From a phage, in the sequence record PZ171032.1: a stretch of DNA of 64,000 nucleotides. One strand, 5' to 3'. Of this stretch, positions 106 to 25,028 are shown one piece after another (position 1 is the first letter of the stretch; each line of letters opens with the position of its first letter). The notes beneath the pieces were generated by a model. That model was not told the DNA's origin and did no database searches. It saw only the letters and a program-made list of their open reading frames with translations. The position numbers and the translations under genes were made by a program.

Positions 106-588
106 TTAAACCCGGATACCTATTGTATACTCGGTGGATACCAATGTCAAATCTAAATTTAAAATTTCTTGCATCTCATAATATGCGTCCAGGGTGAGAT
201 ACATTTCCCCATCCTTTTCTACATACTTGTCCAAGTGCTTGAGGCATTTCGGATAACTATCGAGTGCAGCTTTCAGACACTCAAACTCTGTGCTGTTGAT
301 GAGTCCTTCCATCTTGGCTACCCGTTCTGGGGTAACGATAGCACTGTAGTGAGATTTAGCTTCCTGAATGCAATGGGTCCAAGCATCAACTTTCTCTTCG
401 AAAAGCCCGAAGAATTTCTTTTTGGTGAGCTTCAGATTCTTTAAGTGCTTAAGCACTCGGTTGCCGATCACAGCCACATCACGAAACTTAAGGATCACTT
501 TGTCGATATCCTCGCGGCCTATTTTCACAAAGCAAGCCTCACACATTTCAGGAGCTGCGTAACCTACTTTCCACATAAAATCTGACAT
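106..588 (-). CDS. hypothetical protein, N-terminal Cys motif
   Basis: 160-aa ORF; N-terminal WKxGYAAPxxCExC motif is shared with the 19144..19344 product; no recognisable family. Confidence 0.6.
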   Translation of the reverse strand: MSDFMWKVGYAAPEMCEACFVKIGREDIDKVILKFRDVAVIGNRVLKHLKNLKLTKKKFFGLFEEKVDAWTHCIQEAKSHYSAIVTPERVAKMEGLINSTEFECLKAALDSYPKCLKHLDKYVEKDGEMYLTLDAYYEMQEILNLDLTLVSTEYTIGIRV

Positions 589-8546: not shown

Positions 8547-9731
8547 TTAAGCTTTAGCCAAAATGGCGCTAAACTCTTCACCAAACTCTTTTACAATCTT
8601 CATCAGGTTTGGGTATGCTTTGATCAACTGAGCAACAATCTTGTCACGCCCTTTACCGATAAGCAAGGCATTTCCTAAGGCGTTAGGTTTCATCATCGCC
8701 ATAAAGACTGAGAATACAAAATCTCGGTTCTCGTCCTTGAAATTTTCCCAAAGGAAATCGAGGAAGTTTGCCACACAGCTAACAAGATCTTCGTCGGAGA
8801 TACTTGCATTTTCCATCATATTGCGAATAGCGATACAACCTTCAGATCCAAGAATCCACAAAATGTCTGGCTGCTTAGGACCTACGTATTCTTTGCAGCC
8901 ACCTGCCATAATCCGACCGATTTCCGGTAAATTACGTTTCTTGGTGTGGTAAGTCCAGATCTCTACCGCTGCAGTGTGACCAATAGCACCTTGTAGAAGA
9001 ACACGGGCCATAGCGTCAGAAATAATACCGCTGTCAAAATCGTGCAAGATGTCAGATGCAGCAACCCAAGATCGCGGTGTGGCAAAAGATGGACAATTAA
9101 TCTCAGCCATAGCCTCATAATTATCAATAGCTGAGGGAACTCTTTTCAAATATCCAATTACAGAGGAATGCACCCCATTAAGGAATGCGTAGTCCTCAAT
9201 AAACACCTCTGCATTGCTTGTAACCTCTACAATGATAAAACGGTTAGCCAGAGGGGCTTCGAGCGCCGAAAGAACCGCACCATCTGTAGAACGGTTACCC
9301 GCAGCCACAAAAACAGAACCCTTAGGGAATGCATAGGTGCCGCACTTGTGGTCAAGCATAATTTGCATTGCAACCTTTTGCAGGTAGTTATCTGCATGAG
9401 TGAGCTCATCCAGAAAGATAATTCCGCTCCAGTCAGGATCCGCAGGCCAAAATTCTGGAATTGCAAACACTGTACGTGTAGTTCCATCCGCTTCTACAGG
9501 GATAGGTAGCCCAGATAAGTCGGCAGGATCTTTATCTGACAGTCGCACGTCAACAAGGTTGTCATCTCGCTCACCGAACATATTATCAGCGATCTGCTTC
9601 ATCACCTGGCTTTTACCCACACCCATTGGTCCCAAAATTAGGACAGATCGGCTATGACGTTGGGCAAACTGAATAATAGCTGGCAACTCACGGACAGTGA
9701 TTTGACCACTTTCGAATACGTTTCTTGACAT
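8547..9731 (-). CDS. AAA+ ATPase, MoxR/CbbQ-like
   Basis: Walker A 'LGPMGVGKSQ', Walker B 'IIFLDELTHAD'; size and layout typical of MoxR-type ATPases that partner with VWA proteins. Confidence 0.78.
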   Translation of the reverse strand: MSRNVFESGQITVRELPAIIQFAQRHSRSVLILGPMGVGKSQVMKQIADNMFGERDDNLVDVRLSDKDPADLSGLPIPVEADGTTRTVFAIPEFWPADPDWSGIIFLDELTHADNYLQKVAMQIMLDHKCGTYAFPKGSVFVAAGNRSTDGAVLSALEAPLANRFIIVEVTSNAEVFIEDYAFLNGVHSSVIGYLKRVPSAIDNYEAMAEINCPSFATPRSWVAASDILHDFDSGIISDAMARVLLQGAIGHTAAVEIWTYHTKKRNLPEIGRIMAGGCKEYVGPKQPDILWILGSEGCIAIRNMMENASISDEDLVSCVANFLDFLWENFKDENRDFVFSVFMAMMKPNALGNALLIGKGRDKIVAQLIKAYPNLMKIVKEFGEEFSAILAKA

Positions 9732-13361: not shown

Positions 13362-14843
13362 ATGGCCCCTTCTGGAGTTTTAATGGATAGCAGAAGTTCA
13401 GAAATCATTGCCTCGCAGAAAGATGATGCCCTGAGAATGTTGCAGGCTGCACGTATGTATCTCCTTGAAAAGCTGCCGTTTTATGGCACACTACTGTCAG
13501 GGTTGCAGTTCGTAGAAAACCACACATGGTGCTCCACCATGGCAACCGACCATAAACGCATCTATTACAGTCCTGAGTTCATTATGGGATTGGCTGATGA
13601 GCGCAAGGCTATTCTTAAGGCTTCTCTAACTGACGAGCAGTTTGAGATGGCTGAAGTTTTCTATTCCCCAAAATCTGTGAAAGAGGTGGCCTTCCTTCTG
13701 TCACATGAGGTGGGGCATATTATCTGTGATCATCTAGTCCGTGGTAAAAGCTTTGAGCCGGAACTGTTCAATATTGCTTGTGATCACGTTATCAACACAG
13801 GCCTTGTGGTTGACTTTAGCAAACCTCCTTGTGTTTTCTTCCCGAAGGGGAAAAGCACTACGTTCATGAAAGGTAAGCCTTTTGGCTTCTTAGCCAGCTG
13901 CTACTGTGACATGAGGTTTCATGGATGGATTGCTGAGAACGTTTATGCAGTTCTTGATAAGCAAAGAGATCAGAATAACGGTAAAAGTAAGAACGGTAAA
14001 GGTGAGAACTCTCAAAGTGATAAGCGACAAACCGATGATCACATGAGTGGGAACGGTGGCACCAGTGATAATCTTGGAAAGGCTATGGGGTATGATCAGC
14101 CACAACCTGTAATCAGCCAATCTGATAAAGATCAGGCCATGCAGGACTCTGGTGATATGCTGGAGGCAGCAATGCAAGCTTCCGGAGGTCGTTGCCCTGA
14201 GGCGGTGCGTGAGTTTGTCAAGAACAGGGGTAAGCCTGTAATCAACTATATAGACATCATTAAGCAACGCATGTTGTCTAAACGAAAGGCTGAACTGACC
14301 TACAGAAAACCTGGTCGCCGATCTGGGTCTTTGACCAGCACAATGCGAAAAGTTGGGGCTATAAACAAGAACCAGCACGTTATTGTTCCCGGTCGTAATC
14401 CGGAAAACACCATAGATATTGTTGTAGCTTTAGACGTTTCTGGCTCGATCTCTCAAAGAACTTTAAAGAAAATGTTCAATGAAATCACCGGATTGTGCAA
14501 TCTGTATAAAGAGTTTAAGGTTACAATGTTCTGTTGGTCAACTGAGGTTGGAGAGGTTAAAGTATACACTCGCGGTAACATAGATGAGATGATCAACTAT
14601 GAGGTCCACTCAACATGGGGCACAACAGCTGCTTGCGTGTTCGAGTATCTAGATGCCAACATACCAAATGCAAAAGATGTCATCGTATTGACCGACCTAT
14701 ACTTTGAGCATAACTTTGAACAAAAGGCTGTTGACAACAAGTGGAAAAAGTACGATACTTTATGGGTTCTCACCGAAGGGTATAATAAAAATTATATCCC
14801 TAGCTTTGGGAAAACTGTGGAATTAATCGAGTACGCTAAGTAA
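13362..14843 (+). CDS. metallopeptidase-like (HExxH) plus von Willebrand factor A domain protein (DUF2201-type layout)
   Basis: 'LLSHEVGHIICDH' zinc-binding-like motif in the N-terminal half; C-terminal VWA MIDAS motif 'VVALDVSGSIS'; this layout commonly partners with MoxR ATPases. Confidence 0.72.
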   Translation: MAPSGVLMDSRSSEIIASQKDDALRMLQAARMYLLEKLPFYGTLLSGLQFVENHTWCSTMATDHKRIYYSPEFIMGLADERKAILKASLTDEQFEMAEVFYSPKSVKEVAFLLSHEVGHIICDHLVRGKSFEPELFNIACDHVINTGLVVDFSKPPCVFFPKGKSTTFMKGKPFGFLASCYCDMRFHGWIAENVYAVLDKQRDQNNGKSKNGKGENSQSDKRQTDDHMSGNGGTSDNLGKAMGYDQPQPVISQSDKDQAMQDSGDMLEAAMQASGGRCPEAVREFVKNRGKPVINYIDIIKQRMLSKRKAELTYRKPGRRSGSLTSTMRKVGAINKNQHVIVPGRNPENTIDIVVALDVSGSISQRTLKKMFNEITGLCNLYKEFKVTMFCWSTEVGEVKVYTRGNIDEMINYEVHSTWGTTAACVFEYLDANIPNAKDVIVLTDLYFEHNFEQKAVDNKWKKYDTLWVLTEGYNKNYIPSFGKTVELIEYAK

Positions 14844-14858
14844 GAGAGGAGGTTATTT

Positions 14859-15122
14859 ATGGCAACAGAGTTAAAATTTGCATCAAACCGTAAAACTAAG
14901 AAGTATCTGTCCTCAGTAGCTCCAGGCACTGTGGTGATGTTTGTTGATGAACTTGGGGATGTGAATACAGCACTTGTTGTAAAATCACATCCTGCAAACA
15001 TATATGTTGGGGTATTTGACCTGTTCAGAAAGGTGTTTGTAGAACTGCCTCACAGTTTGGTTGTTACAGAAATGGATGCCTGCATAGAAATTCTTGGCGA
15101 AGTTATGGTGGAGGAACAATAA
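14859..15122 (+). CDS. small hypothetical protein, member 1 of a 4-gene tandem paralog array
   Basis: 87 aa; shares a G-T/E-VV...ELD.KI.ILGE pattern with the next three ORFs; GAGGAGG Shine-Dalgarno. Confidence 0.6.
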   Translation: MATELKFASNRKTKKYLSSVAPGTVVMFVDELGDVNTALVVKSHPANIYVGVFDLFRKVFVELPHSLVVTEMDACIEILGEVMVEEQ

Positions 15123-15385
15123 TGGCTACCAGCATTGTATTCAATTCTAAGGTGAAGAACAAAAAGCGTGCAGACAGTTTTCCGTGTGGGACCGTGGTAA
15201 GTTGCGACGGAGACGGCATTCAAAACATAGTTATGATTGTCAAAACAGGAGAACATTGTGTGTGGGGGTTCGATTTAGAAAATAATGAGTTGTACGATCT
15301 GCCGCCAAACATGAAAGTTACAGAGCTTGACACCAAAATTACCATCCTTGGAGAGACAAGCTATTCAAAAGAAGGAGGAGAATAA
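15122..15385 (+). CDS. small hypothetical protein, paralog 2
   Basis: 87 aa; start overlaps the preceding stop (TAATGG). Confidence 0.6.
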   Translation: MATSIVFNSKVKNKKRADSFPCGTVVSCDGDGIQNIVMIVKTGEHCVWGFDLENNELYDLPPNMKVTELDTKITILGETSYSKEGGE

Positions 15386-15648
15386 TGACCACAAAAATCA
15401 CTATCGCAGAACCGAAAGCTAACACTCAGCCTATCGAAAAGTTTAAGTGCGGTGAGGTGGTAACATTCACACCAGATAATGAAGATGCTAAGATTTTCGC
15501 AATGGTCACAGCTGAGTGGATGTGTGACAACACCACACAGGTTCTGCGTTTTGACACCTATCTTACCGATGAAATCAGGAACGACAAGATTGTGACTGGT
15601 GTGGATACTGAGATTGTTTTCTACAAGAGCTTTTTAGAGGGTTTCTGA
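15385..15648 (+). CDS. small hypothetical protein, paralog 3
   Basis: 87 aa; start overlaps the preceding stop (ATAATGA). Confidence 0.6.
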   Translation: MTTKITIAEPKANTQPIEKFKCGEVVTFTPDNEDAKIFAMVTAEWMCDNTTQVLRFDTYLTDEIRNDKIVTGVDTEIVFYKSFLEGF

Positions 15649-17965: not shown

Positions 17966-18136
17966 ATGAGGCGAAGATATCATTACCTGATGTGGAAGTT
18001 ATATCAAAATGCTGCCAAAGCCTATCATACCATGTTTGGCAATGACGATCACTACATCATGTTACATCTCACCGCTATTGAGCATCACAATGAGTGGATT
18101 CATGCAATCGTGGCAGGTGATAAAGACTTTAAGTAA
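17966..18136 (+). CDS. small hypothetical protein (not in the ORF track, below 60 aa)
   Basis: 56-codon ORF MRRRYHYLMWKLYQ... with GGAGTAAGAG Shine-Dalgarno; fills an otherwise empty 226-nt gap. Confidence 0.3.
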   Translation: MRRRYHYLMWKLYQNAAKAYHTMFGNDDHYIMLHLTAIEHHNEWIHAIVAGDKDFK

Positions 18137-18186
18137 AGTATACCTCAAAAACGTATAGTGCGGCTTTCTAGACGGAGACTGATTAA

Positions 18187-18567
18187 ATGTGCAAGTGTAA
18201 ATCCTATAATTGGAAAGTGAAAGGTGCCAATCATCCAAATGTTATCGTTGATGTGCCTAAAAATCTTCGTGACGGCAAAAAACGTGTGTGCCTTGATAAG
18301 TGTATGGCTAAGCCTATCATGAGTTTGTGGGCAGCAGGTTTGAAAACGCTAAACTGCTGCTGTGGTCATAACAAAGATATTCCAAGCATCATTATCCCAG
18401 AAGATGCAGATCCTAAAGCTTATGCCAAAATACTGACCCGCTATCCCAGCACCTTCCTGATCGGAAAATGGTGTCACGATGAACTCCAATGGTGGATAGC
18501 CTATGGTAGTATAGGCACTACTTTTGGCTTCCCAGCTTTGTCAGAGCGCTATGTCAAAGTGTCATAA
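18187..18567 (+). CDS. Cys-rich hypothetical protein
   Basis: 126-aa ORF with CKCK...C..KC...NCCCGH cysteine cluster; GGAGACTG Shine-Dalgarno. Confidence 0.55.
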   Translation: MCKCKSYNWKVKGANHPNVIVDVPKNLRDGKKRVCLDKCMAKPIMSLWAAGLKTLNCCCGHNKDIPSIIIPEDADPKAYAKILTRYPSTFLIGKWCHDELQWWIAYGSIGTTFGFPALSERYVKVS

Positions 18568-18576
18568 TAGAATTTA

Positions 18577-18594
18577 AGGCCTCAAACGAGGCCT
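18577..18594 (+). terminator. weak terminator-like hairpin
   Basis: aggcctc-aaac-gaggcct 7-bp stem; the downstream U-run is poor. Confidence 0.3.
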
Positions 18595-18671
18595 GTGCCT
18601 TCATAAATTTCCCCACCCTGTGCGATTGCCTTCCTGAATAAAATACCCTCTCAGATCTCTTAAAATTAAGC

Positions 18672-18700
18672 TTGACACCACCACCAGATCTATATATAAT
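18672..18700 (+). promoter_or_regulatory. consensus sigma70 promoter
   Basis: -35 TTGACA at 18672-18677, exactly 17-bp spacer, -10 TATAAT at 18695-18700; followed by GAGGAG Shine-Dalgarno and the ATG at 18733. Confidence 0.65.
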
Positions 18701-18732
18701 TCTCACCAACCAACCAAACAGAGGAGATCGTC

Positions 18733-19140
18733 ATGGATAATCTTGCAGATGTAAATGTCGAAATTGTTAAACTAAAGTTCTTGGGCTTTCGGGACCCTTA
18801 TTCTTTAACAGCCATACTAATGGATACTCACTTCACACCAGGTAAAGAGTACACTGCCTTCCGTTATATTTGCGGAGATCACGAATCAGCTTACAGTGTG
18901 AATACAAACCTCGGCGAGGGATATTTCATCAGAGATATCACAGATCACTTGTGGGGCATGTGGGAGTTGGTGGAGGAAGAGAATAAATCCCTTCCTAAAG
19001 AGATTTGGGTGCACACCTTCCACACAGGTAAGTTTGGAGGTACGGAACATAAGTCTATCCACTATGATGAAGAAAGTGCCATCAAACAACAAGCTGTGCT
19101 TGGTGGATCTATAGAAAAATTTGTTAAATGCGAGGACTGA
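18733..19140 (+). CDS. hypothetical protein
   Basis: 135-aa ORF directly downstream of the consensus promoter. Confidence 0.6.
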   Translation: MDNLADVNVEIVKLKFLGFRDPYSLTAILMDTHFTPGKEYTAFRYICGDHESAYSVNTNLGEGYFIRDITDHLWGMWELVEEENKSLPKEIWVHTFHTGKFGGTEHKSIHYDEESAIKQQAVLGGSIEKFVKCED

Positions 19141-19143
19141 GAA

Positions 19144-19344
19144 ATGGCTGATTTTTGTAAAGATTGCTCTGAAGAGTTGTTTGGCTTTGACTGCAAAGAT
19201 TTGGAAGGTCTGATCACTGAGGATCAGTGGAAGGAAGGCTATGCAGCACCTGTTATTTGTGAAGGTTGTGGCTATACCTATGTTGACCATAAAGGTAAGC
19301 GCGTCAAGCCGTCTGAAGATGGGGCATGTTGGGAGTATTACTAA
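19144..19344 (+). CDS. small zinc-ribbon-like protein
   Basis: 66 aa with two CxxC pairs (CKDC, CEGC); 'WKEGYAAPVICEGC' motif shared with the 106..588 product. Confidence 0.5.
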   Translation: MADFCKDCSEELFGFDCKDLEGLITEDQWKEGYAAPVICEGCGYTYVDHKGKRVKPSEDGACWEYY

Positions 19345-19357
19345 CTATAAAAAGAAA

Positions 19358-19373
19358 GGGGCCGTTTGGCCCC
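19358..19373. terminator. bidirectional rho-independent terminator at the convergence point
   Basis: ggggcc-gttt-ggcccc hairpin flanked by AAAGAAA upstream and TTTTTATTT downstream, so a U-run follows it on both strands. Confidence 0.65.
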
Positions 19374-19391
19374 TTTTTATTTACCCCCTTG

Positions 19392-22300
19392 TTAACGAGA
19401 AAAGGTTGCGTAGGCTTCTAGACGATACTGCTGGTCACCAGGGAACATAACACCTATAGAGGCTGTCCCTAGAATCCTGCCTTCCTTTCCAGACTCCATT
19501 CTGAACCCTACCCATCCTGAACTCCTTGCAGCCTCGATGTTGTCGCTATACCCGAAAGTGGCAAGATCGTCAACACCAGCCCCAAACAGCAACTGAAGCT
19601 GACTTCTCGGAAGCCCTATAATTTCAGGAATATACGCACCAAAGTACACCATCTGCCCTACCTTAGGACCGCTGCCGTACTCCATCGGTTTGCTTGTAGA
19701 GAAAGTCTTCATACCAGAAGTACCTGCCGGATTAGGGTATGCCCCGTTTGTTGCTGTACCTATCCACATTCTCCACTGTGGTGCCATCTGTTTGACAGTA
19801 AAAGATGTTGAAGACGTTTTGCGCCCTGCATCATCTGTAACTACAAACTTTATGGTGACATTCCCAGTAGCTTTAAATGTTACCAGTCCTGTGGTGGCAT
19901 CCACTGTTGCAATGTTGGTATTACTACTTTCCCAAGTCTTTCTAATCCCGGATACGTTGGAAGGGGTAATAGAAGGTTCCTGCATCTGCAGTTTACCGCC
20001 CACAATCCCTATGCCGTTGCCAGGATTATACAGTGCACCAACCTCGTCTATAATGTTCCCTGCTTTGAGACTATACTTCCTTGAGAAATTGTAGGTTCCG
20101 TTATAAGTGTGTGTCCCTGAGAAGGTGACATCTGCCTTCCCGTAAGAGATGCAAACCAACGCATACTTCCTGTCAGGCAACGTTTCTCCAGTCTCTGGGT
20201 GAGTTTTACCTACCTGGAACACACTCGGGTCAGTAGAGTCGTGACTATCACTAACGGAGCTTGGACCGCCCATCAACTGTGACAAACAATTCCTTACCCA
20301 TGTCCAGTTATTATCGCTGGAGAAGTCCACAGTCAAATCAAACACAACCCACTCATTTGGCTTCCACACAGGTGTTGTAATGGACTTGCCTACACCACCT
20401 CCTTGGAGTGTTGCCGACTGTTCAGTGATCAGGGCCGCATAGGCCAGAGTTCCTAAACTCAGAGTCTGGCTTGCTGTCCTCACTACCTTAGAATCAGCAT
20501 CTGTGAAGTTGTTGATGATTTGGAATGTGCCATAAGTGTTTTTACAGGTAATTCTGGCGTTCAGTGTGTCAATCTTCCTCACATCTGCCATAGCAGTGTT
20601 AGACACAGAGAAGTCAGAAGCTTTAGCTGAGTTTGCCGCAACAGCAGGATCAACGTTAAGAGTTGCGTTGAACTGACAAGCAGGAGTAACCAGTAGCTTG
20701 TTATCACCTATTTGCTTCCATGAAACACTTTGAACAGGGAGATTCCATTTAATACCTGAGAAAACCTTAGCAACCCTTGGCCCCAAAGCTCCAGTCCTGT
20801 TGTCTTTACAGCACATAGACATGGTGATCGTTGACGGAGTGGCCTGACCAAATAATTGCTGTGCTTTTGCAGAGGACATAGTGTAGAAATTGTCCTTAAC
20901 AAACTCATCAGCAGCTAAAGATCCATCAGCTCTCCACCACTGAACCTGATACCCTGTTTTGTCCCAACCACCGACCTGCTTCAAGTCCTCCCAGGAGATT
21001 TCCAGATCCCCGGTGGTAGGATTGATTGCAGCAGTTCCTGGTGTTCCAGATGACCATATTGGAATATCGAACCACGCTGGTTTAACCGACTGCACTGCGC
21101 TGGGACCTATTGCGGCAGCAAGTTGCTGGCCCATCAATACGCGAGCATCTTTCACCAGACCCCACTCAATCATAGACCCAGAGTAACCTTCTTTCTTGTA
21201 GGCTGAGGATCCGTTCAAATGGATGAGTCGGCTTGTGCCAAAGTTATGTGCTCCACCACCGTTGTCGTCTGCAAAATTGGTTATGATTCTGTCCCTGATA
21301 TTTTTCCATGCCCTGCCTCCAATCTCGTAGTCATGGTCATAACATCTTTGCAGTGTTGTCCAGCAAATGATCGCCATCCTTCTACCATTGCTGAAGCCAA
21401 AGGCCTGATCGTTAAGCTCTCTCCACAAGTAGCAGTTGGTGGTCCACATGGCCCTATGAATGTTAAACCAGTTTATAGATTTGGCTGAGTTGTTCCACTG
21501 AGTCCCAGGTAATTCAGGCCATACTGCATTAACCAGCATGTCTTCTGTTCCTGCATCAACCAGGAACCCTCTCACCTTCTTACCCATGCCTACCCTATCT
21601 TTTGCAATCCAACTGCCAAACAATCTCAGTTTTGGACCGTAGACAACATCTTCCGGATGCTCAAAAGAAATATATTTTAGGTATATTGTAGGGTCACCAT
21701 AGGTGCCATCACAAACAGCTTTGTGCATGTTCTCACCAAGGTCTAGACGAAGTCCTGTTACAACTCTAGACGTGTCGGTGAATTTGTCTGTTAAATCAAA
21801 CTCATACCACCACCAACCTGCACCCAACAATACTTTCTTACAACGCTGTGCATCTGTATCAGATATTCTCTTATCGCCTGCAAAAGGTGAGTCAGCAAAC
21901 TGATAGTGCAGAGCAACCTCAAAAGGATGTGTGGATGTCCCGTTTTCTGCAAGAACTTGTTTACCTATCAGGTCGCACTTAATGATCATCACAACACGTT
22001 TGTATCCGTTTGTTACCGGAATTTGCATGGACATGGATGTCCCATCCATGTTTGATCTCAGTGCAGTCATGATGATATAAGGGTCAACGGCATTGCCCAA
22101 AGTCTCAGGACCGGGGATTATCTTATACTTCTTGACCTGCCCCATGATGTAGTCACTTGCGTAAGTTGCCTCATTCAAGCAAGATCCTCCACCAGGTAAC
22201 TCACCAGGTCCCCAGAAAAATGCGCCGTAACAGTTGTAGAACCACTTGTTAGGATCGTATTTATTCTTGAAGGTCTGAACCTCGTTGGCCTGTTTTGTCA

Positions 22301-25028
22301 AGAAAACCTGCGTGTCTGTGAAGATTGCAGGGTTTACTCTCGCCTGTCTTGGAGGGTAACCTGTAGTTTGGTTAAACCACAAATTACAAGAGTAATCCCT
22401 CATATAGTCATAATCAGAGTATTTGTTTACATCTTCGTTCCAACACATGTTTAGGTTGGTACCGCCCATGCATACAATATATTCTGCGACATACTTATCA
22501 CTTCTGGTAGGAATACCTATGAACCATCTGTTAACAGGCTCATCCCAAGCTGTGCGCTCATCTTTAACGCAGATAGCAATCCAGTCATGTGTTCCTGTTT
22601 TCTTGCACACATCTCGCTTCATACCATAGTAGAACTCTTTAGTATTCGGCTCAGGTGCATTTATCAGGTAACTCCATGCCTGATTTGCATAAGTTCCATT
22701 GGTGCGTGGATCATGATCAAAGGCATACATGATGATCCTTTCCCCACCAAGATGTTCGCCAAGAGTAACTTTGACATTCACATCGCCGTAACCATTGCGA
22801 ACAACATCCATATTGTCAATAGAGATGCCTCTGGGAGTGTAGGCAATCTTCAGCGAGTTATCCTCACTAGTGCCACCAAGTGTAATCCCTATGTTGTTTG
22901 TTGTCCCGTCGGCATATCTTACTGTGGCTTCCCAGCGTATTCCGAAATATCCTGCATCATGGCTAACAATTTTCAGTGTACGAGCACCAGAGTTAGGTTT
23001 TCCAGGATCAGGCCAAGGATTTGGATGTTCATGGACAGTCAACGATGTCCCGTTTTGCTCGTTGACCTGCAACATTTTACCGCCTCTGCCGTTAGGGTTG
23101 AACTCCCACAAGGCTTGTGTTTTCACAATATTGTCATACGTGGTACGTCTCTGATCGTAGATCTCCTGAGTCACATCGTAGGTTACAGACCCGGCATCCA
23201 TTCTATGGAGTCGTACTATATACGATGTATCGCCTTCTACAGCAGGTTGAGCTGCGTTAAGCCCGAAGTATACAGTATCGTTGACATGGAACTGTTTGTT
23301 TCTACCGACAGTATGCCACTTGCCGTTGGACGGGTACGCTGGGACGATAGTGTTCCAGTTCAAAGTCCTTGTTGTGTGGGTTCTGCCTGTGCCATGTTTG
23401 TCATGATAGGTTATTTTTACAGAGTACAGTCCACGTCTGTTAACATTTCTGTTATATTGGGTAACAACAACTTCGTTGGCCCCGCCGTGGTTCCAGTTGG
23501 TGGAGAATTGGTAATTTGCATCTGTAACAACCGTGCCTGCAGCATTTACCAGTTCAATCTTGTCAATAATGAACGTAGCCCCCTCTGGCTGAGGCTTCAA
23601 TTTCATCTTGACCGTGTCACCAATGTAAATATTGCTAACGCTGCTAACACCGTTAACTTCGAAAATATAATCAACACCCCAACTGTCTACTGGGACATTT
23701 TTATACCAATTCTCAGGAACCTCTGTGAACCCCTGGCTATTAAGTCTGCCGCCAAACAGGTTGTTAGATCCTGCAAAACTTCCCCTTGGGATGCCTGACC
23801 ACCAAAGTTTACCATTAACAACAGTAAAGGTTCCTAAGAAACCTTCTCTGTGGATGCCTTGGAAATAAACACTCTCTGTCCAGCTAACTGGCAGGCGTTG
23901 CTCAACATATTTAGCTGTAGCAAGAGCTTGATAGTGGATAAAATTAGCCCTAGGGCTATTGTTTGCAGATTGTGCACCAATATCATTACACAAGTTGCGA
24001 GAGAATCCACGATACTGTTTAGTGCCATTATTGAAGAAAATGCCACTTGTGCCATATCCACGAGCCATTATCACCTCATGGGTGTAGGTGATATTTAAGG
24101 AACGCCATGTGTCATCTCCCCAGACGTCTTGCCCGTAGAATACGTTAACAAGCTGCTGGTCATTGGGTTTGTGCATCCTCTGTGTGGCAATTATTGCCCC
24201 GTTAGGGCCACACATAAACCCTTTCCACTCCTCATCTGCAGGAATGCCCCTCAAATCGTTACGAGTAATCTGCACAGGGGGCCAAACAAGGTCGTTTCTA
24301 CTGTTATTTCTCAGAAAGTCGTATCCAGCAATCCAGAAACCCCTAGGACCACCGAAAATAACAGAGTTGTCATGCACCTCACAGTTGATGCTTGGGTTTT
24401 TCCAAGGGCCTGTTTCAGGATTTTCCGATGTCTCACCAATCTTTACAGGGGTTGCATGCTGATTTTTATCTACATGCAAAGATCCGTAGGTGTTGTTACC
24501 AGATCCATACAGGTTAAGTATGCCAGTACCTTCTGCCTCTGCAATAACCCAGACAGTGTTGTTAATACCGCCCATCACCTCAATAAGGCGTTCTGGGTGG
24601 GTGTCAAGGTGCAATCCTTTAACAATCTGCTCTGGGAGTGGTGTCCACTCGTTTACGCAAACATCATTACCGCCTGCCGCAGTGGATCCGATAAGACCTG
24701 CAGTGCAGCCGATGTAGAAAAACTGGTTATCAAAAGTCCGGATCACAAACGCGCGGTCTGCTCTCCACACATGATCAACATTCCAGGCTGTTTCGCTCGG
24801 ATAGTTTATAGGGCTACGATCCCCAGTGCGGCACTCTCCGAACTTGTTATAGCCAGTAATATTAAGCTGACCATCATCAAAAAGTATAGCTAAGCTATTT
24901 ACATAGGATACTGTGTTGCTTGTACCATCACTGTTGTCTATTGGGTATGACAGAACAGCAAGTTCCTTAATTCCACCCCTCTTATCGAGGAAATGACGAC
25001 CAAGTTTTAGCAAAGGGATTGGAAGCAT
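19392..25028 (-). CDS. giant virion-associated protein (1878 aa), probable tail fiber/tailspike with RCC1-like N-terminal repeats
   Basis: Largest ORF in the window, at the distal end of the fiber cluster; N-terminus has RCC1-like repeat signatures ('ILFDDGQLNITGYNKFGE', 'VWVIAEAEGTGILNLYGSGNNTYG'); Trp/Tyr/Asn-rich. Confidence 0.6.
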   Translation of the reverse strand: MLPIPLLKLGRHFLDKRGGIKELAVLSYPIDNSDGTSNTVSYVNSLAILFDDGQLNITGYNKFGECRTGDRSPINYPSETAWNVDHVWRADRAFVIRTFDNQFFYIGCTAGLIGSTAAGGNDVCVNEWTPLPEQIVKGLHLDTHPERLIEVMGGINNTVWVIAEAEGTGILNLYGSGNNTYGSLHVDKNQHATPVKIGETSENPETGPWKNPSINCEVHDNSVIFGGPRGFWIAGYDFLRNNSRNDLVWPPVQITRNDLRGIPADEEWKGFMCGPNGAIIATQRMHKPNDQQLVNVFYGQDVWGDDTWRSLNITYTHEVIMARGYGTSGIFFNNGTKQYRGFSRNLCNDIGAQSANNSPRANFIHYQALATAKYVEQRLPVSWTESVYFQGIHREGFLGTFTVVNGKLWWSGIPRGSFAGSNNLFGGRLNSQGFTEVPENWYKNVPVDSWGVDYIFEVNGVSSVSNIYIGDTVKMKLKPQPEGATFIIDKIELVNAAGTVVTDANYQFSTNWNHGGANEVVVTQYNRNVNRRGLYSVKITYHDKHGTGRTHTTRTLNWNTIVPAYPSNGKWHTVGRNKQFHVNDTVYFGLNAAQPAVEGDTSYIVRLHRMDAGSVTYDVTQEIYDQRRTTYDNIVKTQALWEFNPNGRGGKMLQVNEQNGTSLTVHEHPNPWPDPGKPNSGARTLKIVSHDAGYFGIRWEATVRYADGTTNNIGITLGGTSEDNSLKIAYTPRGISIDNMDVVRNGYGDVNVKVTLGEHLGGERIIMYAFDHDPRTNGTYANQAWSYLINAPEPNTKEFYYGMKRDVCKKTGTHDWIAICVKDERTAWDEPVNRWFIGIPTRSDKYVAEYIVCMGGTNLNMCWNEDVNKYSDYDYMRDYSCNLWFNQTTGYPPRQARVNPAIFTDTQVFLTKQANEVQTFKNKYDPNKWFYNCYGAFFWGPGELPGGGSCLNEATYASDYIMGQVKKYKIIPGPETLGNAVDPYIIMTALRSNMDGTSMSMQIPVTNGYKRVVMIIKCDLIGKQVLAENGTSTHPFEVALHYQFADSPFAGDKRISDTDAQRCKKVLLGAGWWWYEFDLTDKFTDTSRVVTGLRLDLGENMHKAVCDGTYGDPTIYLKYISFEHPEDVVYGPKLRLFGSWIAKDRVGMGKKVRGFLVDAGTEDMLVNAVWPELPGTQWNNSAKSINWFNIHRAMWTTNCYLWRELNDQAFGFSNGRRMAIICWTTLQRCYDHDYEIGGRAWKNIRDRIITNFADDNGGGAHNFGTSRLIHLNGSSAYKKEGYSGSMIEWGLVKDARVLMGQQLAAAIGPSAVQSVKPAWFDIPIWSSGTPGTAAINPTTGDLEISWEDLKQVGGWDKTGYQVQWWRADGSLAADEFVKDNFYTMSSAKAQQLFGQATPSTITMSMCCKDNRTGALGPRVAKVFSGIKWNLPVQSVSWKQIGDNKLLVTPACQFNATLNVDPAVAANSAKASDFSVSNTAMADVRKIDTLNARITCKNTYGTFQIINNFTDADSKVVRTASQTLSLGTLAYAALITEQSATLQGGGVGKSITTPVWKPNEWVVFDLTVDFSSDNNWTWVRNCLSQLMGGPSSVSDSHDSTDPSVFQVGKTHPETGETLPDRKYALVCISYGKADVTFSGTHTYNGTYNFSRKYSLKAGNIIDEVGALYNPGNGIGIVGGKLQMQEPSITPSNVSGIRKTWESSNTNIATVDATTGLVTFKATGNVTIKFVVTDDAGRKTSSTSFTVKQMAPQWRMWIGTATNGAYPNPAGTSGMKTFSTSKPMEYGSGPKVGQMVYFGAYIPEIIGLPRSQLQLLFGAGVDDLATFGYSDNIEAARSSGWVGFRMESGKEGRILGTASIGVMFPGDQQYRLEAYATFSR

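Follow-up and report, generated by a model that had tools for sequence, protein, structure and literature searches.

A Predicted Early Two-Gene Unit with a Consensus Sigma70 Promoter and a Putative Zinc-Ribbon Protein in an rV5-like Coliphage

Organisation of the cassette

The window, i.e., the whole stretch of 64,000 nucleotides of phage DNA analysed here, carries a two-gene cassette that very probably forms a transcription unit of its own, closing the early gene 11-26 block of an rV5-like coliphage (Table 1). The host sigma70 RNA polymerase would start at promoter P025 (18672-18700) and produce a transcript of about 0.67 kb that has a strong ribosome-binding site and a CA-rich leader free of predicted structure. 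Transcription would stop at a bidirectional intrinsic terminator, the common end with a convergent late tail-fibre gene. The mRNA would encode gp25, a 135-residue protein made of two exchangeable modules, and gp26, a 66-residue protein expected to hold one zinc through two CxxC pairs. At a guess, gp26 could work as a zinc-ribbon adaptor on nucleic acid or its machinery early in infection.

The 2.1 kb around the cassette display 99.5% identity to the Escherichia Vequintavirus phages JLBYU08, nomo, CarlMeissner, and Gotham, and 97% identity to the genus type phage rV5. Its sequence places the window in the genus Vequintavirus, among the rV5-like phages of E. coli. The 135- and 66-residue genes are those of rV5 ORF25 and ORF26, “hypothetical” in all records, and their products are 97-100% identical to the rV5 counterparts. 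Kropinski et al. 2013 (PMC3606486; GenBank DQ832317) proposed rV5 genes 11-26 as one unit with sigma70-type promoters, and Table S4 of that work lists promoter P025 (TTGACACCAACAATAGATTTGTATAGGAT) and terminators t026/t027 exactly at the position of the cassette. The GenBank record of Gotham has a promoter and a terminator annotated there as well. Promoter, genes 25/26, and terminator were already predicted in rV5 in 2013 and in the records of close relatives, and the cassette has little weight as a discovery since these precede it. A sigma70 promoter followed by the 135- and 66-residue genes and a bidirectional terminator is also what the first-pass annotation had read from the letters of the window, and this anatomy is confirmed, with both ORFs on the + strand and a hairpin at 19354-19381.

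The terminator (GGGGCC-GTTT-GGCCCC) has predicted folding energies of -19.6 (+ strand) and -18.7 kcal/mol (- strand) and is provided with U tracts in both directions (UUUUUAUUU on the + strand, UUUCUUUUU on the - strand). At the other end of the cassette, no pairing is predicted in the leader, including the Shine-Dalgarno sequence of gene 25. Gene 26 starts 4 nt after the gene 25 stop, so that translation of the two genes is probably coupled. Taken together, this anatomy supports an autonomous, efficiently translated early unit. Its early timing is plausible, the cassette closing the rV5 gene 11-26 unit that is read from sigma70-type promoters. Of note, the leader displays a repeat-number polymorphism between the promoter and the ribosome-binding site: the ACCAACCAACCAAAC stretch is found at 18705-18719, and Gotham has one ACCA unit fewer.

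Upstream of the promoter, a stem-loop (18577-18595) folds with -13.9 kcal/mol (z -2.35). Its stem is identical in all ten Vequintavirus variants, nom displaying a single changed loop base. It may serve as a weak terminator or a stabiliser of the RNA 3'-end, separating the cassette from upstream transcription, or else as a processing element, and upstream transcripts may have their 3' end here. An Rfam search of 18000-19700 returned no match.

Table 1. Features of the cassette and of the genes discussed with it (positions in the window).
Feature	Position	Strand	Basis or remark
Gene of the 160-residue protein (phrog_12900)	106-588	-	ORF list, PHROG match
WKVGYAAPEMCEAC motif, residues 6-19 of the 160-residue protein	532-573	-	String match
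MSDFMWKVGYAAPEMCEAC, first 19 residues of the 160-residue protein, motif-bearing	532-588	-	Sequence
Stem-loop AAGGCCTC-AAAC-GAGGCCT	18577-18595	+	Just 3' of the rV5 ORF24 stop; no U tract
Predicted sigma70 promoter (rV5 P025)	18672-18700	+	12/12 match; Table S4; Gotham annotation; ten variants
CA-rich leader (ACCAACCAACCAAAC)	18701-18732	+	Sequence
Shine-Dalgarno sequence of gene 25, AGAGGAGA	18720-18727	+	5 nt before the ATG
Gene 25, 135 residues (rV5 ORF25, phrog_15992)	18733-19140	+	ORF list, PHROG match
Shine-Dalgarno sequence of gene 26, GAGGA	19132-19136	+	Sequence
Gene 26, 66 residues (rV5 ORF26, phrog_2210)	19144-19344	+	ORF list, PHROG match
WKEGYAAPVICEGC motif, residues 29-42 of gp26	19228-19269	+	String match
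Bidirectional intrinsic terminator (rV5 t026/t027)	~19354-19381	both	Between the cassette and the convergent tail fibre gene
Lateral tail fibre gene, 1878 residues, convergent with the cassette	19392-25028	-	Annotation

Proteins encoded by the cassette

gp26 is a full-length member of phrog_2210, which it matches with an E-value of 1.2e-36, residues 1-65 aligning with positions 1-65 of the 66-position profile. This family has no curated model, and its members include T5.062, Felix O1 Q6KGT0, and PaMx41 ORF35. Homologues are found in 836 phage records, comprising those of Vequintavirus, Felixounavirus (about 72% identity), T5-like phages (about 60-64%), and phages of Pseudomonas and Stenotrophomonas. 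An exhaustive profile search returns 1,102 clusters at 50% identity (E-values up to 0.001), and among the 150 clusters listed nearly all members are stand-alone proteins of 56-120 residues. Neither 61 diverse members nor 54 viral sequences show any exchange of Cys5, Cys8, Cys39, or Cys42, and the MADFC start and the CEGCG knuckle are nearly invariant in the family. Many distant members possess in addition a C-x4-C-x3-H segment and an acidic tail.

In the AlphaFold2 model of gp26 (pLDDT 80), the first CxxC pair (5-8) is located at the N-terminus of a helix and the second (39-42) on a β-hairpin. On its invariant cysteines, gp26 is a putative C4 zinc ribbon that would bind one zinc via the two CxxC pairs. 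The earlier description of the protein as zinc-ribbon-like is supported. Among curated zinc-ribbon models, no Pfam or NCBIfam match to gp26 reaches the cut-off. A BFVD fold search with gp26 retrieves family members only, and a profile of 61 relatives run against the PDB and Pfam yields weak, generic zinc-finger matches only. gp26 is a marker of a widespread phage zinc-ribbon family devoid of a Pfam model, and hence a reasonable target for a family description.

The gene neighbourhoods of the gp26 homologues are heterogeneous, and no conserved partner gene emerges from 80 loci. In small environmental phages, homologues are found among genes for nucleases, a DnaQ-like exonuclease, RecA-like ATPases, and methyltransferases. 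Placement in early or replication modules is the sole recurrent theme, and on this weak ground gp26 is guessed to be a small adaptor of the zinc-ribbon type that would act early in infection, on nucleic acid or on the machinery handling it. Two of these neighbourhoods deserve mention on their own. T5.062 (locus L147, 1481-1681) is a hypothetical protein encoded in the early tRNA/stable-RNA cluster, immediately beside the HNH endonuclease gene hegD; a literature search on T5.062 found nothing relevant. In Felixounavirus, as exemplified by Salmonella phage Mushroom (L006 2702-3487), a 261-residue “phosphatase” directly succeeds the gp26 homologue with no intervening gap, and the N-terminus of this “phosphatase” resembles, by eye only, a macro (ADP-ribose-binding) domain.

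Profile matches divide gp25 into two modules and make it a mosaic: residues 12-81 align with phrog_30425, and residues 91-133 with phrog_3955 and families related to it. The N-terminal module (residues about 13-80) is found as a stand-alone 72-residue protein (51% identity) at the same position in nom, SophiaRose, and bov10K2. The C-terminal module (residues about 89-135) corresponds to an ORF of ~45 residues present in about 300 records of T1-like and other coliphages. A word-index homologue search with the whole 135-residue protein and with the C-terminal module retrieved close relatives only. Between its promoter and gene 26, phage nom carries a 109-residue gene (phrog_12630) and a 72-residue gene, with no 135-residue gene. 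From this slot content, promoter, gene 26, and terminator are constant and the first position is exchangeable. This variable slot is a candidate cargo insertion site in Vequintavirus therapy phages.

Selection on the two genes is strongly purifying, and diversifying selection has left no trace: dN/dS is 0.04-0.09 for gene 25 against seven relatives and 0.06-0.16 for gene 26. Gene 26 exists in the genus as two alleles (FDCKDLE...GAC and RDCGDLK...GSC; the window compared with loci L141, L143, and L089) that are about 0.8 apart in dS. The adjoining gene 25 displays a dS of only 0.13-0.24 between carriers of the two alleles, a discrepancy that points to recombination breakpoints inside the cassette.

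The first-pass annotation had placed the cassette among immediate-early host-takeover or anti-defence modules, a reading that has several attractions: the strong sigma70 promoter, the small acidic proteins, and the dedicated terminator would all suit it. The gene content that varies within the genus between the promoter and gp26, with the 109- and 72-residue genes of nom, and the sharing of the gp25 modules with unrelated coliphages both follow the pattern of accessory genes, and of all features it is the exchangeable first gene alone that would suit an accessory role. Nevertheless, this reading is unlikely, and nothing ties either protein to such a function. Neither protein resembles any characterised one. 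Searches of Pfam, NCBIfam, and PADLOC with the 135-, 66-, and 160-residue proteins, and of the PDB by sequence with the 66- and 135-residue proteins, gave nothing above threshold, and no fold match to a characterised protein was obtained either. Homologues of gp26 occur in many groups of lytic phages with hosts of different genera; a factor directed against one defence system would rarely be so widespread, and a general function looks more likely. The purifying selection on both genes (dN/dS 0.04-0.16) also speaks against it, and the base composition of the cassette is the same as that of its flanks. Furthermore, the BASEL study found the Vequintavirinae to be exceptionally sensitive to restriction-modification systems (PMC8594841). 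An autonomous early unit encoding a putative zinc-ribbon protein is the reading retained.

The P025 promoter and its natural variants

P025 is found in a 165-nt intergenic gap, in the orientation of gene 25, 33 nt upstream of its ATG at 18733. The -35 box TTGACA (18672-18677) and the -10 box TATAAT (18695-18700) are separated by a 17-nt spacer on the + strand, exactly as the first reading of the window had it, matching the consensus at 12/12 positions. Transcription is expected to start near 18706-18708. A scan of both strands for exact TTGACA-N16-18-TATAAT retrieves this single site in the 64-kb window, together with seven other sites matching at 11/12 positions. Shuffled versions of the window contain a mean of 0.03 perfect matches, 3/100 of them having one or more. 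The claim that this is the only fully consensus promoter holds within the window but not genome-wide, as the complete genome of the near-identical Gotham harbours four perfect sites. In rV5, 33 sigma70 promoters have been predicted (PMC3606486). With these two counts, the site appears strong but not singular.

Promoter conservation was assessed by aligning the intergenic region from ten Vequintavirus variants. In the -35 box, TTGAC is invariant, the sixth base being A in 7/10 and C in 3/10, and the spacer is 17 nt long in 9/10, with 18 nt in nom. The -10 box occurs as TATAAT in the window and its close kin, TATGAT in six variants, and TAGGAT in rV5 and phita32; that of nom reads TATTCT, with TG in front. 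Positions T1, A2, and T6 of this box are retained in all ten variants, and A5 in nine, nom being the exception. The spacer and flanks diverge by 12-19% across the variants, and the 141-nt region displays only 80-90% identity in 64 of 86 records, comparable to the synonymous divergence of gene 25 (pS 0.12-0.30). A 16-mer scan of viral contigs for further promoter variants returned mostly chance matches, together with just three Vequintavirus loci, all already known.

P025 probably functions as a sigma70 promoter, since ten diverged variants retain the -35 box, the spacing, and the key -10 positions despite drift in the spacer. On the same alignment, the 12/12 match represents a derived state, confined to a single sub-lineage. 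That P025 is a fortuitous match, genes 25-26 being read through from upstream early promoters, is very improbable: a perfect site does arise somewhere in 64 kb in three of the hundred shuffles, and a read-through contribution is likely given that the upstream hairpin is devoid of a U tract, but the location of the site in an intergenic gap, correctly oriented and just ahead of a start codon, the retention of TTGAC, TA...T, and the spacing in ten variants while neighbouring bases drift, and its prediction by two independent annotation efforts (rV5 Table S4 and the Gotham record) all argue for a genuine promoter.

Perfect-consensus promoters can be limited at the step of promoter escape, and a rank of P025 as the “strongest” is not assured for this reason. 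A literature search found no transcriptome or 5'-end map of a Vequintavirus, and promoter activity and early timing are predictions drawn from the sequence. The natural 12/12 promoter, with sister versions matching at 11/12 and 10/12 positions in the same context, constitutes an allelic series for phage promoter strength.

The Cys motif shared with a distant protein

The string WK-x-GYAAP-xx-CE-x-C, which the first-pass annotation had described as linking gp26 to the N-terminus of the 160-residue protein, is indeed present in both; homology of the two proteins does not follow from it. In the gp26 model, WKEGYAAPVICEGC runs from the end of a helix through a loop to the strand that precedes the second CxxC knuckle. 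A BLASTP alignment of the two proteins pairs gp26 residues 24-42 with residues 1-19 of the 160-residue protein, with 10/19 identities and 14/19 positives. Its E-value is 6e-6 as a single comparison and 0.001 against all 481 ORFs of the window, and its significance becomes borderline over all comparisons: when 225 ORFs are all compared with one another by BLASTP, the pair comes seventh at a per-query E-value of 0.003, where about 0.7 chance hits are expected. Weaker pairs come just behind (E-values 0.004, 0.008, and 0.009), forming a continuous tail. With a gp26 family profile from which Vequintavirus sequences had been left out, the 160-residue protein obtains an E-value of 0.35 and comes fourth among the 225. 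A complete 137-kb genome contains no third copy of the motif.

At the DNA level, 31/42 bases of the motif match, and 6/10 identical residues are encoded by different codons. An origin of the motif by recent duplication or gene conversion is excluded by these differences at synonymous sites. The 160-residue protein has one CxxC only, and its single-sequence AlphaFold2 model, with a pLDDT of 39, is too poor to be informative. It is confined to Vequintavirus at ≥95% identity, and conservation is for this reason unusable as a test of the motif. The string match is real, while common ancestry is not established by these comparisons.

True common ancestry would make the N-terminus of the 160-residue protein a remnant of a gp26-like ribbon, with MADF joined to WKEGYAAPVICEGC and the first knuckle lost, fused to an unrelated body. 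This is possible, though doubtful on balance. The pairwise E-values, both singly and against the window ORFs, argue for it, as does the fact that the 160-residue protein harbours the sole other copy of the motif in the 137-kb genome. Both proteins start with M-[AS]-D-F, and W-x-x-G-Y-A-A ahead of the CEGC knuckle recurs in distant family members (P0045 and P0039). Moreover, a weak match of phrog_16551 to the 160-residue protein extends from residue 19 onward only, which suggests that the N-terminal 18 residues may be an add-on. On the other side stand the 0.7 pairs expected by chance and the position of the pair at the top of a continuous tail, the E-value given by the independent family profile, the base and codon differences that leave no room for a recent duplication, the single CxxC, and the low confidence of the model.

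A bolder proposal is that the gp26 family targets a machine conserved across Proteobacteria and that WK-x-GYAAP-xx-CE-x-C is its contact surface, captured by the Vequintavirus-specific 160-residue protein. Its chances appear slim; if true, two unrelated early proteins, gp26 and the 160-residue protein, would dock on one partner.

The 160-residue gene is the last of an operon that also comprises the gene of a 441-residue protein (1318-2643, - strand), which the Gotham record lists as the methylase subunit of a type III restriction-modification system.

Comparison with known systems

The closest counterpart of the cassette is the rV5 locus itself, with the same gene order, -35 box, spacing, and terminator. 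They differ in the -10 box, which is TAGGAT in rV5 (10/12) and TATAAT in the window (12/12), and in the leader, that of rV5 being shorter by one ACCA.

Within phrog_2210, gp26 shares with the other members the MADFCxxCS start, the CEGCG knuckle, and the four invariant cysteines. The contexts are diverse: T5.062 is encoded among tRNA genes, the Felix O1 copy ahead of a macro-domain-like “phosphatase”, and PaMx41 ORF35 in a replication module. Unlike gp26, these three copies have no consensus promoter and terminator of their own. No function has been described for any member of phrog_2210.

Generic C4 zinc ribbons and treble-clef-like fingers, such as ribosomal protein S27e and zf-C4pol, resemble gp26 in having a pair of CxxC motifs spaced by about 30 residues, with one motif located, for gp26 in its model, on a β-hairpin knuckle. 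Mu Com and the TraR/DksA-like proteins are small phage zinc-finger regulators of 60-75 residues and of the C4 type, acting on mRNA or on RNA polymerase. gp26 is similar to them in size, C4 character, and phage origin, a resemblance of kind only: it displays no sequence similarity to Mu Com or the TraR/DksA-like proteins and does not match the Pfam TraR/DksA zinc-finger model.

T5 PN25 and T7 A1 are strong early sigma70 promoters of coliphages with near-consensus hexamers, used by the unmodified host polymerase. The near-consensus hexamers, the short leader, and the dedicated terminator found here recall these promoters and moron-like cassettes, the activity of P025 being a predicted one. As in moron-like autonomous cassettes, the two genes come with their own promoter and their own terminator. 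The foreign composition or sporadic presence that also characterises morons is not seen: the GC content is 0.40-0.43, like that of the flanks, and the cassette with gp26 is present in every Vequintavirus examined, where only the gene content upstream of gp26 varies. A foreign origin of the cassette was rejected on the same GC values.

Other observations on the window and its relatives

Three head-to-tail genes of 87 residues each (14859-15122, 15122-15385, and 15385-15648, + strand) correspond to rV5 ORF14-16. The counterparts of ORF14 and ORF15 share 39% identity, and the three genes form a tandem paralogue array in the early unit to which the cassette belongs. Just ahead of them, a 493-residue protein (13362-14843, + strand) displays a DUF2201 metallopeptidase-like and a VWA-like domain; a 394-residue gene product with a P-loop-like motif (8547-9731, - strand) could be its partner.

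In GenBank, about 16-19 “Campylobacter phage” records of the MG0656xx series give C. jejuni as host and are about 99% identical to E. coli Vequintaviruses. This host label is probably in error, or else the phages came along with E. coli isolated at the same time.
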